Shown: positions 6,465 to 15,971, counted from the first letter of the stretch. The stretch is DNA of 22,628 nucleotides from a virus (IMGVR_UViG_2861043448_000001); one strand, 5' to 3'. The notes: generated by a model from the letters alone, not told the origin. Translations and numbers: made by a program.

Positions 6465-7409
6465 TCACAACCAGCCGACGCTCTCTCGCCATTTATAATT
6501 AGTAACTTTATCATTTTCGCTTATTTTTTTAGATATAGAGCGCGGCTCTCTTCCTAGATACTCAGATATTTCTATCGGGGACAAATCAAAATCAACAAGC
6601 ATGACTCTAAGTTTTTCCATTTCCTTTAAAGTCCAAGGCTTGCCATAATTTTCATAAAGAGATACCTTATGCTCCCTGATAGTTCGCTTTCTCTGAGTTT
6701 CACTTTCCCTCTGAAAAATCTCGCTTTTAAATTGTGAACGGAACTCTTTACAGAAGTTGTTATCAGTTTTTTTGTTATATAGATTGCTAAAAATAAGCTG
6801 GGATGCCGGGTCTAAATCAGGTGTGTTAATAATGAAAACTTTGACCTTTTCCATATAGGGATATTCAATTTTACCCAATATGCTTAATTGCTTTATATTA
6901 AAAAAACCTCTCAAATCAAAAGATTTAATGAGCTTTGATTGGATTACACTTTCAATCCTGCTTGCATTTAAATAACAGTACTTTGCCATTGGAAGGGCCC
7001 ATACTACCAGTTGAGGAATATATTTTTCTAATGCAATGCTCTGCCAATCAGTATCAAAGGTTTGGCTTTTTGCTAGCATGTTTTTCGGCAAATCAGAATA
7101 CATTGTGGTAGATGCCCATATCTTATAATCATTCGCCAAGGCTTGATAGTATTTTGTGTGGTTATGAATTTTATAAGCTGACATGAAGCGATAAACGTCT
7201 TCGTCGTGACCAGCGTCGTAAATTGTTCGATTTCCTCTAAGATAACCGTCGTAATGTTCGGTTATCCTTCTACCTACATTACAACTTACCCCAACGTAAA
7301 CCACACGACTGAAAAGTCCTTTATGGACAATAAGATAAACTCCGCTACAGCCAGATTTCCTGGCCTCTGATAGAGAACCTAAAAATCTCCATTCCATAAT
7401 TAAATCCAT
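6465..7409 (-). CDS. GIY-YIG nuclease-domain protein (314 aa) with uncharacterised C-terminal region
   Basis: N-terminus CSGVYLIVHKGLFSRVVYVGVSCNVGRRITEHY fits GIY-x(about 12)-YVG ... R ... E spacing of GIY-YIG nucleases. The gene is markedly AT-rich compared with flanking phage genes. Confidence 0.75.
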   Translation of the reverse strand: MDLIMEWRFLGSLSEARKSGCSGVYLIVHKGLFSRVVYVGVSCNVGRRITEHYDGYLRGNRTIYDAGHDEDVYRFMSAYKIHNHTKYYQALANDYKIWASTTMYSDLPKNMLAKSQTFDTDWQSIALEKYIPQLVVWALPMAKYCYLNASRIESVIQSKLIKSFDLRGFFNIKQLSILGKIEYPYMEKVKVFIINTPDLDPASQLIFSNLYNKKTDNNFCKEFRSQFKSEIFQRESETQRKRTIREHKVSLYENYGKPWTLKEMEKLRVMLVDFDLSPIEISEYLGREPRSISKKISENDKVTNYKWRESVGWL

Positions 7410-7579
7410 AATTATTGCTACTGTTTTTGTTTATCATTATTTTCGTGAAACTTCAACAATTTTATCCAAAAGCTAAGGGCAAAGACTTATATAATTATAC
7501 TTGTCATCGTTAGCGATTATATAGAGTAGTGGCGCTGACCTGCTCCCTGGTGATTCACACAGAATGCTGTTAGTAATGT

Positions 7580-7642
7580 CCGTTCCTCGCTCTCAGCGGA
7601 CCTTCAGCTCAGTGATATCGTCCGCTCTGTGCAAAGAGCGGA
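7580..7642. repeat. two tandem hairpin elements (GTCCGTTCCTCGCTCTCAGCGGAC and GTCCGCTCTGTGCAAAGAGCGGAC)
   Basis: Second unit is a perfect 9-bp stem with 6-nt loop and matches the copy at 6404-6427; located in the 547-bp spacer between the GIY-YIG gene and the 449-aa gene. A further CCGCTCT-containing imperfect dyad occurs near 7760-7790. Confidence 0.45.
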
Positions 7643-7956
7643 CGTTGGTATGCAAGAGCCCTCCAAAAGTTGATGGTTGGTTTGCAGGGGGGCTTAAAGA
7701 AACTGCACTTATCAAGTTGAAGTTCTGTATTCAGCGAAATCGTAGCACTCTGACGATAAGTAACTCCGGTACTCCGCTCTTCGATGAAGAACCAGAGTAA
7801 TCCCCCCGAAAAACCAGCGCATCAAAATTGGATCTTCAGCGGTAGCTTATCGGCTATCGGAAGTACAGGTGTGGATTCGTGGTGAATTGCTTTGATAATA
7901 AACGATTAATACGGAAAAACGCATTAATCATTTATTAGCTTTTAGTAAACCACAAT

Positions 7957-9306
7957 TTATTCCGTTTTACATATCATAGTAGTCGATTGGAGAATATAGT
8001 TTCTGGGAATGTACTCTTCAAAGTGTTCGTCCTTTTTAAATACATGAACTACATTTGGGAATAATTGATAGTCAACAGGGTGTATAGCGTTTGGATTATG
8101 GTACATGTACATGGCTGTACACCATGGTTCTTGATAGTTAGGGTCACTTACATCGGCTGAAAATGGATGTGGGGCTGCATCCTGATCAGTTTTAACACCA
8201 CTGACGTACACTTTGAATCCACTCGCCTCTACACCTGCAAGAATTCCCATCCGGTTAAACTTAGGTATGGTTGCTTGAGTAGTGAGTAAAACGGCAGAAA
8301 CATAATTATTTTGTTCTGAGCCAAAAAAGTTCGACTTGATACTTCTATTTTCATCTGTATGTCTTTCAATAGAAATGCCTGACTCAATATCAATCCCGTA
8401 CAAATAGCTATGCAAGGCTTCGCTTGAGAAGGCCATGGACATTCTTTTTGAATAATCCTGCATTGCTATGACAAATGGTTTGTTCTTTGTATGGTTGAGT
8501 TCCCAGTAATGAACTTTCTCTGGCTCAGGGCAATGCCGGACTTTTTTTAATAAACTTCTTGCAAACTTAAAAGGCATGACATTTAGAACATGTTTTCTTA
8601 ATTCATCCATCTGTTCATCGTTAATGACTTTTCTTTCAAGAGGGGCTTCTGCTTCAGCAATGCTTACAGCCTCTACAGCAATTTCCACTCCAAATTTAGA
8701 TAGCAGAAAATCTGGTTGATTGTATTCTCTATTCATTTCAAAGTCGAGTTCATAAAATACAGCGTTCAAATATAATTCAAATAACCTTGAATTAAATGCA
8801 TCACTTTGAAAATCCCTTATAAATATTCCATCAGGATCTTTGAACCAGTATGCAAGTTCCTCAAGAACAATATATGCAGGGAAATGAAGAGGGTCTTCGA
8901 GGAGCATTTTTATATAAACATTCCTTTTTTTCGCTGGGACCTTACTCAAGAATAATGAAAAAGGTTTGGTTGATTCATCGCCTTGCATGAATGTACCATT
9001 TTGGTGCTGCGCCAGCATCTTTGGTATGTCATCGTTCAAATTATTAAGCAAGACATCCATTGAATCAAATGAAGCCAAGACGTTTATTGCTCTGAATTTT
9101 TTATCTAAATCCCGACCTAAGACTATTGCGTTAAAATCTTTATCAATATTGCATATGATTATTGTGGATAACAATGTTATCCCATTCCCCTCATATTTAA
9201 ACCAGCGTATCTCCTCAGAAAATGTCTTAAGGTAAGGTGAGCGACCGTAAAAATAAATATCAAATTGTTCTTTGCTGATCTCACTGAAGTGTAATCCTGC
9301 GTTCAT
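7957..9306 (-). CDS. hypothetical protein (449 aa), no recognisable domain
   Basis: Long intact ORF with AAGGA SD 7-11 nt upstream of the ATG; AT-rich; same strand as the adjacent GIY-YIG gene. Confidence 0.7.
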   Translation of the reverse strand: MNAGLHFSEISKEQFDIYFYGRSPYLKTFSEEIRWFKYEGNGITLLSTIIICNIDKDFNAIVLGRDLDKKFRAINVLASFDSMDVLLNNLNDDIPKMLAQHQNGTFMQGDESTKPFSLFLSKVPAKKRNVYIKMLLEDPLHFPAYIVLEELAYWFKDPDGIFIRDFQSDAFNSRLFELYLNAVFYELDFEMNREYNQPDFLLSKFGVEIAVEAVSIAEAEAPLERKVINDEQMDELRKHVLNVMPFKFARSLLKKVRHCPEPEKVHYWELNHTKNKPFVIAMQDYSKRMSMAFSSEALHSYLYGIDIESGISIERHTDENRSIKSNFFGSEQNNYVSAVLLTTQATIPKFNRMGILAGVEASGFKVYVSGVKTDQDAAPHPFSADVSDPNYQEPWCTAMYMYHNPNAIHPVDYQLFPNVVHVFKKDEHFEEYIPRNYILQSTTMICKTE

Positions 9307-9428
9307 ACCAATTCCTTTTCAATGAATAATTGGCCTTTAGGAGTGATTCCCTTTGTCTTTAATTCAGTTCTAACTAGTTCTTTAATCCAATAGCCTAAGC
9401 TCATCATGCAGTTGGATCATAAGACAAC

Positions 9429-9457
9429 GCCCTATAGTGCTCGTGATACTATAGGGC
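9429..9457. promoter_or_regulatory. perfect 10-bp inverted repeat with 9-bp spacer (GCCCTATAGT-gctcgtgat-ACTATAGGGC)
   Basis: Seen directly in the divergent region between the 449-aa gene and the recombinase gene; geometry resembles an operator or recombinase core site. Confidence 0.35.
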
Positions 9458-9590
9458 ATCTGACCACACTGTTAACTGGAGTAACGACTATGGCAGGAAT
9501 ACAGCATAACCAAACTCACCCCAAACTTACATAGCGCTTTCTGGCCGTGAGCATAACAAGGTCCACTCCTCGCTCATAAGGGACAACCAT

Positions 9591-9623
9591 ACTCAAATCT
9601 CCCACATTGCAGGAGATTTGAGT
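9591..9623 (+). promoter_or_regulatory. perfect 12-bp stem-loop sequestering the recombinase ribosome-binding site
   Basis: ACTCAAATCTCC-cacattgca-GGAGATTTGAGT; the AGGAG SD (9611-9615) lies in the loop/3' arm junction and the ATG (9624) follows immediately. Confidence 0.45.
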
Positions 9624-10226
9624 ATGAACACGTCACCGTGGAACAAAGACCGTATCATAGGCCAAAAAAGACCACTTCAGATATCTCATATCTGGGGTAT
9701 CCGAATCCGACTTGAACTGGAAGGTAAAACTCGCGATTTAGCTCTGTTCAACATGGCCCTGGATAGTAAGCTTCGAGGCTGTGATCTGGTCAAACTCAAA
9801 GTATCTGATGTTGCATATGGTGGCTCTGTTTCAAGCAGAGCAACGGTGTTGCAACAGAAAACCGGTAGCCCTGTTCAATTTGAGATAACCAAAGGGACAA
9901 GAGAAGCTGTTGCTGCATTGATACAGCTTAGCAATTTGCACAGTAAAGACTTCTTGTTTCGGTCTAGGGTCGGAACTAACCAGCACATTTCAACCCGGCA
10001 ATACAACCGAATCTTTCATGGGGGGGTAGAAAAGCTTGGTCTCGAAGATTCGCTTTACAGCACACATTCCATGAGAAGAACAAAACCTTACCTGATCTAC
10101 AAGAAAACCAAGAATCTCCGGGTGATCCAACTTCTGTTGGGTCATAAGAAACTGGAAAGCACAGTCCGTTATCTGGGCATTGAAGTCGATGATGCGTTAG
10201 AGATTTCTGAATCGATTGAAGTCTAA
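9624..10226 (+). CDS. small tyrosine recombinase, catalytic domain only (FimB/FimE-sized, 200 aa)
   Basis: Catalytic signature ...LRGCD (Arg-I) ... HSMRRT ... LLGH ... TVRYL (Tyr nucleophile). No N-terminal arm-binding domain. The track ORF begins at TTG 9618; ATG 9624 with AGGAG 8 nt upstream is preferred. Confidence 0.8.
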   Translation: MNTSPWNKDRIIGQKRPLQISHIWGIRIRLELEGKTRDLALFNMALDSKLRGCDLVKLKVSDVAYGGSVSSRATVLQQKTGSPVQFEITKGTREAVAALIQLSNLHSKDFLFRSRVGTNQHISTRQYNRIFHGGVEKLGLEDSLYSTHSMRRTKPYLIYKKTKNLRVIQLLLGHKKLESTVRYLGIEVDDALEISESIEV

Positions 10227-10585
10227 GGTTGTCAGGGCTGCAACAGCAGCCCTGTGCCATAAGCGGAAGTATTTAACAACTATCAGTGTTGTTCAACAGA
10301 TAAAGGGGCACTTGATTTTTTCTGTTCTCAGGAAATGATAAAAGCGCGTCGGTTCAAGCCTGCTTAACGGGAGTTTGTTAATCCTGTTGCCGTGACGTTT
10401 TGACACCATTATGATGGGGAGACACTTAATGTATGAAGGTTCCGCCACTTATACCTGTCCAACAACTGCCTCGGATGTTTCTTTGTATGAATAAGTGGTA
10501 ATGAGTAGTGAATCGCTAACAGTCACCCGAACAATCGGTGCCTGCAATTAATTCTATATTCTAAACGAGGGGGAGATTATTACAC

Positions 10586-11566
10586 ATGAAATTTAAGGAC
10601 AAGAACCTTAAGGCTCTCGCGGAATGTATCATAGGAGATAATAAGGCATTTCTGTATCGTTCAAGCAGTCACATCACTGAATTTTTCCAGGACTGCGGCA
10701 TGGATGTTACTCATGACGGATCCACTCGGTGGAAATGGACGGCCCAGAGGCTTGAAGAACTTCTTTATGAGCCACAGTCAAAGCCACATACTTTGCCGGA
10801 AAGGTTTGTTCATGTGCTCAGAACTTTAATGTTAAAAGAAGATGCAATGGATGACGATCCAGGAAGATTAAAGGCGCTTGAAGAACTGAACAAGCCTTTG
10901 ATGCGGGAAGGCTATGAGGCATTCTATGGTGACGATCGCCTTTTGTATATACGCCATACCGATACCAAAACGGTTTCAGTCAGTAATAACCCTCATCGGC
11001 CCTTAACGCCTCACGAAGTAGAATGCAGAAGGTTACTGACCGCGTTTCTTGATACCTGCTCAGAAGATGAGTTAATAGAAGATATTCTCCTTCCTTTATT
11101 CCGGCAACTTGGTTTTCACCGGATAACAGCAGTGGGACATAAAGATAAAGCGCTGGAATACGGGAAAGACATCTGGATGAAGTTCACACTGCCAACTCAG
11201 CATGTTCTTTATTTCGGCATTCAGGCAAAAAAAGGTAAGTTGGATGCGTCCGGTGCCAGCAAATCTACGAATTCAAACGTGGCAGAAATCTTCAACCAGG
11301 TACTGATGATGCTTGGCCATGAAATATTTGACCCAGAAACAAATAGAAAGGTGCTGGTAGATCATGCCTTTATCGTTGCTGGCGGAGAAATTACTAAACA
11401 GGCGAGGAACTGGCTGGGCGGGAAACTTGATGCCAGCAAAAGAAGCCAGATAATATTTATGGACCGGGAAGACATTCTTAATTTATATACTGTAAGTAAT
11501 GTACCTCTGCCAACAGGTGCTCTCATCTCTGATGATGCCGTTAAGAACGATGATATTCCTTTCTAA
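10586..11566 (+). CDS. protein with C-terminal Mrr-like PD-(D/E)xK nuclease motif and unknown N-terminal domain (326 aa)
   Basis: Strong SD (GAGGGGGAG). C-terminal half ...HRITAVGHKDKALEYGKDIWMKF...LYFGIQAKKG... resembles the Mrr catalytic core (D ... Q-x-K). Confidence 0.7.
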   Translation: MKFKDKNLKALAECIIGDNKAFLYRSSSHITEFFQDCGMDVTHDGSTRWKWTAQRLEELLYEPQSKPHTLPERFVHVLRTLMLKEDAMDDDPGRLKALEELNKPLMREGYEAFYGDDRLLYIRHTDTKTVSVSNNPHRPLTPHEVECRRLLTAFLDTCSEDELIEDILLPLFRQLGFHRITAVGHKDKALEYGKDIWMKFTLPTQHVLYFGIQAKKGKLDASGASKSTNSNVAEIFNQVLMMLGHEIFDPETNRKVLVDHAFIVAGGEITKQARNWLGGKLDASKRSQIIFMDREDILNLYTVSNVPLPTGALISDDAVKNDDIPF

Positions 11567-11993
11567 TCAGAAGTACGTCTTTTTCTGAAAGAATACGTGA
11601 TAGGTAGCCACACCACACCTTTAGTGACCCCTTAATCTGGTAATATAACAGCCCGTATGAATGTCCGCGGCATCGCGGGCTGAAATTTATTAAAAATACT
11701 TATTCATCAAGCTGGAGTAGTTTGCCGAGTAACTGTAAACGCCCAACTTAACCGGACCATTCACTTTTAGATTGCTACCAGCAAACCAACTTCCGTTTCT
11801 CGCTCAAAGCGGACTAGAAGGTTAGCTTGCGTCGGACTTGGCGTATTTAAAGAAGTGCTGGTGGTAACTGGTTGTTGTGTTCCATTTCTACAAAACAAAA
11901 TCACAGAAACTATACCCAATAGTTATATTGAATCAATGATGAGACAGCCTCATATTTATCAGAACTGGTGTACGTCCAATACAGGAGGTTGTC

Positions 11994-12083
11994 GTGCTGG
12001 TTCTCAAATATGCGCTAGCTATTGCGGCTGTAATGGCAATTTATTGTCTTGCTATTGTTCTTACGGATCGCCTTTCTGATTGA
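11994..12083 (+). CDS. putative small hydrophobic peptide (29 codons, GTG start)
   Basis: AGGAGG SD 6 nt upstream of GTG; translation VLVLKYALAIAAVMAIYCLAIVLTDRLSD is one predicted TM helix with a short polar tail, like type I toxins. Lies just upstream of the hok promoter region. Confidence 0.25.
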   Translation: MLVLKYALAIAAVMAIYCLAIVLTDRLSD

Positions 12084-12237
12084 TTTTATATTGGCGAGGT
12101 GACGGGAGTTAAGTAGAATTGCTGCGGGTGCTTGAGGCTATCTGCCTCAGGCATGAACACCAAAGGCAGATAGAGAAAAGCCCCAGTTAACATTACGCGT
12201 CCTGCAAGACGTTTAACATTAATCTGAGGCTCAATCT

Positions 12238-12450
12238 ATGAACGGCAAATCTAGGTTAGCCTCTTACGTGCCGAAAGGCAAGGAGAAGCAGGCTATGAAG
12301 CAGCAAAAGGCGATGTTAATCGCCCTGATCGTCATCTGTTTAACCGTCATAATGACGGCACTGGTAACGAGGAAAGACCTCTGCGAGGTACGAATCCGAA
12401 CCGGCCAGACGGAGGTCGCTGTCTTCACAGCTTACGAACCTGAGGAGTAA
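12238..12450 (+). CDS. hok: Hok/Gef family type I toxin with in-frame Mok leader (hok proper = 12295..12450)
   Basis: MKQQKAMLIALIVICLTVIMTALVTRKDLCEVRIRTGQTEVAVFTAYEPEE is a near-match to Hok/Gef toxins; in-frame upstream extension from ATG 12238 as in chromosomal mok; candidate promoter TTGGCG-17-TAGAAT about 12097-12125. Confidence 0.85.
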   Translation: MNGKSRLASYVPKGKEKQAMKQQKAMLIALIVICLTVIMTALVTRKDLCEVRIRTGQTEVAVFTAYEPEE

Positions 12451-12517
12451 GAGACCAGGCGGGGGAGAATCCCTCGCCACCTCTGATGTGTCAGGCATCC
12501 TCAACGCACCCGCACTT

Positions 12518-12546
12518 AACCCGCTTCGGCGGGTTTTTGTTTTTAT
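12518..12546 (+). terminator. intrinsic terminator after hok
   Basis: AACCCGC-ttcg-GCGGGTT hairpin followed by a T-run (TTTTTGTTTTTATTTT). Confidence 0.6.
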
Positions 12547-12665
12547 TTTCAACGCGTTTGAAGTTCTGGACGGTGCCGGAATAGAATCAAAAATACTTAA
12601 GTAGCGCGCAGGGATAAGAGGGATGGTCCCTTAAAGGGGAGAGCTAATTATCCGGAAGGATTCTG

Positions 12666-15661: not shown

Positions 15662-15737
15662 GGCCCTTTAGCTCAGTGGTGAGAGCGAGCGACTCATAAT
15701 CGACAGGTCGCTGGGTCAAATCCAGCAAGGGCCACCA
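15662..15737 (+). tRNA. tRNA with CAU anticodon (Ile2/Met type, ileX-like)
   Basis: Cloverleaf read by eye: acceptor GGCCCTT/AAGGGCC, anticodon loop CUCAUAA, T-arm GCUGG-GUCAAAU-CCAGC, 3' ACCA. Close to E. coli ileX as recalled. Confidence 0.85.
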
Positions 15738-15738
15738 A

Positions 15739-15815
15739 CCGTCACCAGTTCATCAGGAAAGAGCGTCAACCCTTTAAGTTGAGTGTGCGAGGTTCGAGTC
15801 CCCGGTGGCGGTCCA
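15739..15815 (+). tRNA. atypical tRNA-like gene (anticodon loop CCUUUAA; identity uncertain, possibly degenerate)
   Basis: 77 nt with acceptor, D, anticodon and T arms, but C at positions 8 and 33 and an A-C mismatch in the T-stem. Confidence 0.4.
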
Positions 15816-15817
15816 GT

Positions 15818-15893
<76 letters not shown>

Positions 15894-15896
15894 TAT

Positions 15897-15971
<75 letters not shown>

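Follow-up and report, generated by a model that had tools for sequence, protein, structure and literature searches.

The small ORF and its surroundings

The DNA analyzed here, a stretch of 22,628 nucleotides from a virus (IMGVR_UViG_2861043448_000001) that we call the window, has the same sequence as a cryptic Qin-like prophage that many E. coli chromosomes carry inserted in ydfJ. From the left, its genes run int, xis, exonuclease, ydfD, dicB, a DUF977 gene, and variable cargo; on the right follow a small ORF, hokD, rem, a DUF968 gene, rusA, Q, and three tRNA genes. The tRNA genes (Ile, Thr, and Gly) are annotated at 15662-15971 on the plus strand, just past the Q antiterminator gene, and tRNA genes downstream of Q are seen in many lambdoid and Stx-type prophages. 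The features of the small ORF and of the hok/sok locus beside it are as follows:

11928..11956, plus strand: candidate sigma-70 promoter of the small gene, with TTGAAT (11928-11933), a 17-nt spacer, and CATATT (11951-11956)
11983..11988, plus strand: Shine–Dalgarno (SD) sequence AGGAGG, read from the sequence, with a 5-nt spacer (TTGTC) before the GTG
11994..12083, plus strand: predicted small gene of 29 codons with a GTG start and a TGA stop, from sequence, conservation, and hydropathy
12091..12119, plus strand: hok promoter TTGGCG-17-TAGAAT, from a promoter scan, in a position that agrees with the mRNA 5′ end at 12126
12126..12545, plus strand: hok/sok locus, the neighbor of the small gene, from Rfam, ORF, and terminator evidence
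12126-12300, plus strand: hok mRNA leader, an Rfam RF01794 match of 111.7 bits (gathering score, 59)
12238-12450, plus strand: mok frame, an ORF in the hok/sok locus
12295-12450, plus strand: hokD coding sequence, with its ATG at 12295
12518-12535, plus strand: hok terminator and T tract, from a terminator scan

The small ORF runs from GTG (11994-11996) to TGA (12081-12083), a frame of 29 codons whose 29-aa product is VLVLKYALAIAAVMAIYCLAIVLTDRLSD, written (M/V)LVLKYALAIAAVMAIYCLAIVLTDRLSD when the start residue is left as M or V. A preliminary description of this DNA had drawn attention to a GTG at 11994 preceded by AGGAGG at ideal spacing, and the motif indeed lies at 11983-11988, 5 nt before the start. 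It had also described the product as a single transmembrane-like helix with a short charged tail, and the predicted hydropathy agrees: the Kyte–Doolittle GRAVY is 1.60 and the highest 19-residue window scores 2.38, values that fit one predicted transmembrane helix between K5 and D25. A single Lys lies close to the N terminus, and the C-terminal tail reads D-R-L-S-D. As many as 40 ORFs of at least 20 aa overlap the 2.5-kb stretch around the small ORF, so its length is by itself uninformative and conservation is the real question. What exceeds chance is the retention of frame, start codon, and SD, together with an excess of synonymous substitutions.

On its left, the small ORF borders a region (6465-11566, from the DUF977 gene to the small ORF) that looks like a variable defense/cargo hotspot, because the cargo is different in every related locus examined. 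Within the window, this cargo includes a minus-strand gene at 7957-9306 for a 449-aa “hypothetical protein,” which matches the PADLOC model of the anti-phage defense gene PD-T7-1 (E=7e-157), an integrase fragment, and a 326-aa protein without a family match. The ORF for this last protein (10586-11566, plus strand) lies directly upstream of the small ORF and gave no family match in NCBIfam or PADLOC; the hairpin (AGCCCG...CGGGCT) and T-rich run that come after it, at 11651-11690, resemble a terminator of this 326-aa ORF. Elsewhere the left-side cargo consists of DUF4145, of QueH, of two hypothetical proteins, or of a minus-strand 444-aa protein, while the block of small ORF, hok, and rem is constant on the right in the other genomes and phages examined. 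The Qin prophage of E. coli K-12 differs: it has no small ORF, and relBE is the immediate upstream neighbor of hokD. There (L217; K-12 NC_000913.3 1,645,119-1,645,872), hokD begins 71 nt downstream of relE, too close to accommodate the small ORF or the ~300 nt found ahead of hok in the window. Thus, K-12 lacks the small gene because relBE occupies that position in Qin, small-protein surveys based on K-12 could not find it, and the window reads as a fuller form of the locus, with small ORF, hok promoter, and leader.

On its right, the stop codon of the small ORF precedes the hok –35 element by 8 nt, the hok mRNA 5′ end (12126) by 42 nt, and the hok ATG (12295) by 211 nt, so that the original placement “just upstream of hok” is correct. 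Because the hok promoter and the hok mRNA 5′ end are both downstream of the stop, the small ORF lies outside the canonical hok 5′ UTR. The possibility that the region is only the 5′ untranslated structure of the hok mRNA, named in the preliminary description as a result that would speak against a small gene, was checked and is out: the promoter (12091-12119) and the start of the RF01794 match (12126) lie beyond the stop. The hok mRNA 5′ stem nonetheless stands at a constant 46 nt past the small ORF in 84 of the 86 stem-bearing contexts, and the hok leader accompanies the small ORF in ~90% of distinct contexts. By these comparisons hok/sok is the neighbor and travelling companion of the small gene; a functional coupling of the two is a possibility. 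The minus strand of 12048-12184 gives a weak Rfam match to hok/sok (18.6 bits, E=0.24, far under the gathering score), which is probably a reflection of the palindromic hok 5′ stem-loops.

Distribution, annotation, and relatives

Of 5426 complete E. coli genomes, 2511 contain a match to the 206-bp segment 11900-12105, at 2981 places. When coverage of at least 80% is demanded, 1768 of the 5426 genomes remain, about a third. Identities are mostly 90–99% across matching genomes, and most copies fall between 90 and 100%. The locus of E. coli 042 is a 100% identical copy, and variants are present in ATCC 25922, W, and BL21. The hok leader region matches 9369 places in 4254 E. coli genomes, and a comparison of these places with the 2981 of the ORF region indicates that the complete small ORF accompanies about one-quarter to one-third of such hok loci. 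Many of the hok loci without it retain its final ~20–45 nt fused to the hok promoter (query positions 162-205). According to tblastn, four sequenced phages carry the small ORF (Tritos, Evi, mEp460_ev081, and HannyBb), as do 143 plasmid records, 124 of them Shigella; these records are mainly pINV virulence plasmids of Shigella/EIEC. The 60–80% identity band holds 136 of the plasmid records, and all 36 of those among the matches listed are 72.4% identical over all 29 residues. When a single genome of each species was scanned, matches came solely from E. coli/Shigella, E. albertii, and three MAG contigs, which are labelled Collinsella, Scatousia, and Haemophilus and are taken to be mis-binned E. 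coli phage DNA. Scans of IMG/VR and of metagenomes add hundreds more copies.

The preliminary description called the ORF unannotated, which is true of the identical RefSeq record and of RefSeq's usual practice but not of other sources: PGAP annotates it as WP_000960667.1, a “hypothetical protein,” Prokka (Prodigal) calls it as CP037924_00134 on pWR100 in the annotation used for the M90T dRNA-seq paper, and nr carries it as “putative membrane protein” entries. Among papers with searchable text, none contains the peptide strings or WP_000960667.

Homologues were sought with two queries, a 40-aa read-through of 11961-12080, whose first 11 residues are non-native, and a 30-aa translation from 11991; neither search returned longer or named relatives. 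An exhaustive HMMER search of 1.84 billion representatives gave eight hits at E<=1e-3, all of them the same ORF and differing in upstream start calls, such as a 37-aa version beginning MRPIQEVV..., which place the SD within the coding sequence. The homologues come from E. coli and E. albertii and are named “hypothetical protein” or “putative membrane protein.” In NCBIfam, Pfam, PHROGs, and PADLOC, no family appeared for the peptide beyond noise-level matches to transmembrane helices. The suggestion that the ORF might be a truncated hok paralogue was not upheld: four variants of the peptide gave no Hok/Gef (PF01848) hit by hmmscan against Pfam at E<=10, BLASTP of the peptide against the adjacent Hok produced no alignment at E<=100, and RF01794 is limited to 12126-12300, with no hok-type mRNA architecture above the Rfam threshold over 11900-12100.

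Conservation of the frame and of its expression signals

For comparison, 79 distinct sequence contexts were drawn from 279 copies. The 29-codon frame is intact in 76 of the 79 contexts and in 277 of 281 copies, figures biased toward intact copies in that most loci were retrieved via peptide or SD patterns. Of the 76 intact contexts, 74 start with GTG and two with ATG, and AGGAG stands at the same spacing from the start in 69 of the 79. When loci were anchored on the promoter and SD pattern alone (n=190), no frameshift and no premature stop was found; three of them have a changed stop that makes the frame slightly longer.

Substitutions were counted by Fitch parsimony on a neighbor-joining tree of 38 intact haplotypes. 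Because the sequences are short and closely related, the coding statistics rest on 79 inferred substitutions, of which 40 are synonymous, 39 non-synonymous, and none creates a stop in the ORF frame, an excess of synonymous changes over the 31% expected (binomial p=2.2e-4). They fall on codon positions in the ratio 26/13/40. The other two plus-strand frames, with synonymous/non-synonymous/stop counts of 20/49/10 and 15/64/0, have no such excess. A simpler tally of unique mutations shows none in the three reverse frames, and there the excess of the ORF frame itself reaches only p=0.035. Pairwise dN/dS between deep lineages is 0.19–0.38. The comparison of L005 with L008 (pWR100), a pair picked post hoc as the most divergent, gives Sd=13 and Nd=7 (Fisher p=2.5e-5). 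Where residues differ, the exchanges are conservative (A/V/T, I/V, M/T/V, D/E, R/H, and L/F), and residues L8, A9, I10, A12, I16, Y17, and L19 are invariant. The ORF is linked to hok in ~90% of contexts, and hitch-hiking with the promoter region of hok could account for some of this conservation. On balance, a protein-coding function of 11994-12083 is likely.

Competing frames over the same DNA fared less well. An overlapping 74-aa frame (11855..12079), which according to the preliminary description has no SD, is rejected as coding on its 15 synonymous against 64 non-synonymous changes; in other contexts, conservation does not extend to the upstream half of this frame. Minus-strand “hypothetical proteins” have been called over the small gene in HannyBb (L002 2454-2743) and, by RAST, on pWR100 (90749-91021). 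Since the reverse frames lack a coding signature and variant mutations would make stops in all three of them (2, 1, and 5 in the unique-mutation count), these calls were rejected and are probably on the wrong strand.

Divergent copies show what is lost and kept together. The pseudogene L293/L294 (1391-1560) carries a 2-nt deletion in the ORF, AGGAGG has become AGAAAG, and both promoter hexamers are gone, while the downstream hok leader is still intact. It is only in this frameshifted copy that the SD is lost (AGAAAG), and the joint loss of SD, frame, and –10/–35 elements is what would be expected if selection otherwise keeps these features. Another copy (L295) has an in-frame 3-nt deletion, GGGAGG as its SD, an ATG start, and an Arg within the helix. 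In L159 (IMG/VR 2617270998_000002), an 11-nt deletion removes the stop and yields a 35-aa product, VLALTCVLAIVAVLVIYCLVVAFMERFSDWRGRGS; its dN/dS against other lineages is relaxed (0.5–1.06). Certain prophages lack hok altogether and have the small ORF between queH and a DUF1971 gene, with homology ending ~12 nt past the stop. On pINV plasmids, including pWR100, the small ORF lies 294 nt upstream of icsP, starts with ATG, and encodes MLVLKGTLAIAAVMTIYCLIVVLMERFSD; the pWR100 copy (L008 2928-3190; NZ_CP037924.1 ~90,808-91,070, minus strand) has an SD and TTGAGT-17-CATATT. It is followed by a decayed remnant of the hok promoter and leader and then by AT-rich icsP upstream DNA. The “unusually large” stretch ahead of icsP on Shigella pINV thus includes an intact copy of the small gene. 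From this copy and the decayed remnant beside it, icsP seemingly landed next to, or came with, a prophage hok module. The promoter-like element, SD, and predicted ORF are thus kept as a unit without hok.

The candidate promoter of the small gene, TTGAAT-17-CATATT, matches the consensus at 8 of 12 positions, which is why a scan requiring 9 of 12 passed over it, and predicts a transcription start near 11963. The pattern TTGA(A/G/T)(T/G)-17-CATATT occurs in 65 of the 79 distinct contexts, hok-less and Shigella pINV copies included, and is absent or changed in the other 14. It is kept across three unrelated upstream backgrounds, and for these two reasons it was preferred over ATCACA-18-TATATT (11900-11929), an alternative that was dropped because its –10 element is TGTATT in most haplotypes and the site is missing from the other upstream types. 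We infer that TTGAAT-17-CATATT is a candidate site of promoter use. In BL21-type strains, a deletion joins the DUF977 gene to the leader; the SD and ORF stay and the candidate promoter is gone. For the pINV copy, the predicted transcription start is near 91027 of pWR100; dRNA-seq of S. flexneri M90T (TSB, 37 °C, OD600 0.3) has no start site between 90800 and 91199, and its table places the icsP starts at 90709 and 90726.

The predicted leader is ~30 nt long, and 11964-12125 does not fold more stably than shuffled sequences do (z=0.19). An inverted repeat of 18 nt (11777-11794 / 11984-12001, 78% complementary) could mask the SD and start in a longer transcript. Masking by the left arm was rejected because the block conserved with other phages begins at ~11797, which puts 11777-11794 just outside it. 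A minus-strand promoter-like site, TTGATT-16-TATAGT (11936-11909), stands back-to-back with the –35 element of the small-gene candidate and points away from the ORF. The sequence at this back-to-back –35 region, TTGAATCAA, is nearly palindromic, and the minus-strand site at 11909-11936 could drive a minus-strand cargo gene, as in phage Tritos.

Interpretation and comparison with known systems

Collectively, the sequence comparisons make it rather probable, in our judgment, that 11994-12083 is a genuine gene separate from hok, encoding a small inner-membrane peptide and lying in a hok/sok module at the edge of defense cargo. Translation would proceed from the consensus SD and the GTG start. In most copies the gene would probably be transcribed from a modest sigma-70-type promoter of its own, TTGAAT-17-CATATT; transcription would otherwise reach it as early-rightward read-through of the prophage. 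The predicted product has 29 residues, with N-terminal MLVLK, one transmembrane helix (residues ~6–24), and an acidic D/E-R-L-S-D tail, and should insert in the inner membrane. An invariant face formed by A9, A12/V13, I16, L19, and L23 may point to helix–helix contacts, either self-association or contact with another membrane protein. The small gene would be the left end of a conserved two-part module, the small gene and then hok/sok, that flanks the variable cargo/defense hotspot of Qin-like and lambdoid prophages of Escherichia/Shigella, and it would be retained upon loss of hok. Our guess at its function is a membrane-active accessory peptide of the moron type, harmful only if over-produced, and not a classical RNA-controlled toxin.

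The preliminary description had raised a second small toxin as one possibility. On that reading, which we hold to be quite improbable, the small ORF would be the toxin of a second, undescribed type I pair that depolarizes or permeabilizes the inner membrane, with an antisense or divergent sRNA blocking its translation. By sequence prediction, the product is a small hydrophobic peptide that would be targeted to the membrane (29 aa, GRAVY 1.60, window 2.38), its size, single hydrophobic helix, and charged tail resemble those of TisB, ZorO, DinQ, ShoB, and Ldr, and its ORF adjoins hok/sok in mobile DNA. Besides the divergent site at 11936-11909, a minus-strand promoter-like site, TTAACT-18-TAAAAT, lies at 12112-12083, and an RNA from it would be antisense to the 3′ end of the ORF. 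However, its –10 element is TAAAAT in only 30 of the 79 contexts and TGAAAT, without the key A2, in 32, and its –35 element sits in hok-specific DNA and is missing from hok-less copies. A cis-antisense RNA from 12112-12083 was therefore rejected, and the search for an antisense promoter on the opposite strand, proposed earlier as a check, found none that is conserved. Pairing in trans, as by OhsC, OrzO, or IstR, would require a direct repeat that connects the divergent-transcript region with the ORF leader; none was found, and a divergent sRNA of this kind was rejected for that reason. The scan of 11560-12660 found no minus-strand terminator, and Rfam has no RNA family at the locus besides hok/sok; the antisense and terminator negatives come from consensus scans, in which absence is not proof. 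The transcript also does not look translationally inert, with a predicted leader of ~30 nt from a predicted start site, z=0.19, and an exposed SD, whereas known type I mRNAs hide theirs. With no conserved antisense promoter or terminator found, a type I toxin–antitoxin pair is unsupported.

It is also unlikely that the frame is open by chance and without function, conserved because the segment is young, because it recombines as one block with the hok promoter, or because it carries DNA or RNA signals such as an UP-like element or an upstream control region serving the hok promoter. Such an account would accommodate the 90–100% identity of most copies, the spacing to hok fixed in 84 of 86 contexts, the last ~20–45 nt of the ORF that often remain at the promoter of hok loci without it, the lack of an M90T start site there, and the omission of the ORF from most RefSeq records. 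It sits poorly with the frame-specific synonymous excess (p=2.2e-4), with the lack of stop substitutions and frameshifts in that analysis, and with the retention of SD and start codon even through a change from GTG to ATG. Moreover, ORF, SD, and promoter are retained together where hok is absent or decayed, the sole frameshifted copy lost all expression signals jointly, and the L295 deletion of 3 nt is in frame. A further reading makes the small ORF an upstream leader ORF of hok, whose translation on read-through transcripts tunes the amount or folding of a 5′-extended hok mRNA. The two share orientation and fixed spacing, and no convincing intrinsic terminator lies between 12083 and hok, the sole hit being a weak hairpin inside the ORF. 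We nevertheless consider this role very unlikely: the promoter and canonical 5′ end of hok itself both lie beyond the small ORF, the ORF is missing from many hok loci (hok 5′ region at 9369 places in 4254 genomes, ORF region at 2981 in 2511), the ORF is maintained where no hok exists, and selection appears to act on the amino acid sequence, which a pure leader would not need.

If the small gene is expressed, about one-third of sequenced E. coli, and apparently all sampled pINV-type virulence plasmids of Shigella/EIEC, carry a gene for an uncharacterized membrane peptide that standard annotation usually omits. Hok/sok has a reported phage-exclusion activity. The position between a defense-cargo hotspot and hok/sok means that a role in membrane-level abortive infection or in modulation of Hok could be tested genetically. 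A more far-reaching proposal, to which we give a low probability, is that the peptide forms with Hok a two-peptide membrane module, acting as a second, RNA-independent killer or abortive-infection effector or as a Hok-binding helix that sets the threshold of Hok, that in either case it forms the fixed right-hand border of the prophage anti-phage hotspot, and that the pINV copy upstream of icsP has a role of its own. In any case, the small gene is a clean case for better small-ORF annotation. It would nonetheless be one more small hydrophobic ORF, an unannotated membrane protein in mobile DNA, and not a new kind of system.

Among characterized families, the small peptide is like the Hok/Gef toxins (PF01848) in being small, in having one N-terminal transmembrane helix, and in being prophage- or plasmid-borne, and it is adjacent to hok in ~90% of contexts. 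Unlike them, it has 29 aa instead of ~50 and no sequence similarity, it lacks a periplasmic Cys-containing domain, and its gene has neither an overlapping mok-like frame nor the Sok, fbi, or tac/ucb RNA architecture. The short type I toxins of E. coli, namely TisB (29 aa), ZorO (29), DinQ (27), ShoB (26), LdrD (35), and Ibs (18–19), belong to the same length class, likewise have one hydrophobic helix with a short charged terminus, and are also encoded in accessory DNA. However, the mRNAs of such toxins have a long, structured 5′ UTR in which the SD is sequestered, and each gene is paired with a defined sRNA, either antisense or divergent, whereas the small gene has an exposed consensus SD and a short unstructured predicted leader, with no conserved antisense promoter, terminator, or complementary repeat found. 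With small single-pass inner-membrane proteins of enterobacteria such as MgtS, AcrZ, PmrR, YohP, and Blr, it has in common a length below 50 aa, one transmembrane helix, SD-driven translation, and restriction to a lineage; unlike these proteins, to which it has no homology, it is borne by prophages and plasmids and tied to hok/sok. Ribo-seq in pathogenic E. coli has brought to light unannotated small membrane proteins (bioRxiv 10.64898/2026.09.28.754932), which resemble the present peptide in being below 50 aa, having one transmembrane helix, being missed by annotation pipelines, and being restricted to a lineage; in a Ribo-seq preprint on CFT073, six small membrane proteins are named as novel. 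Judged from sequence, the present family is best described as one of uncharacterized 29-residue, single-helix membrane peptides restricted to Escherichia/Shigella.
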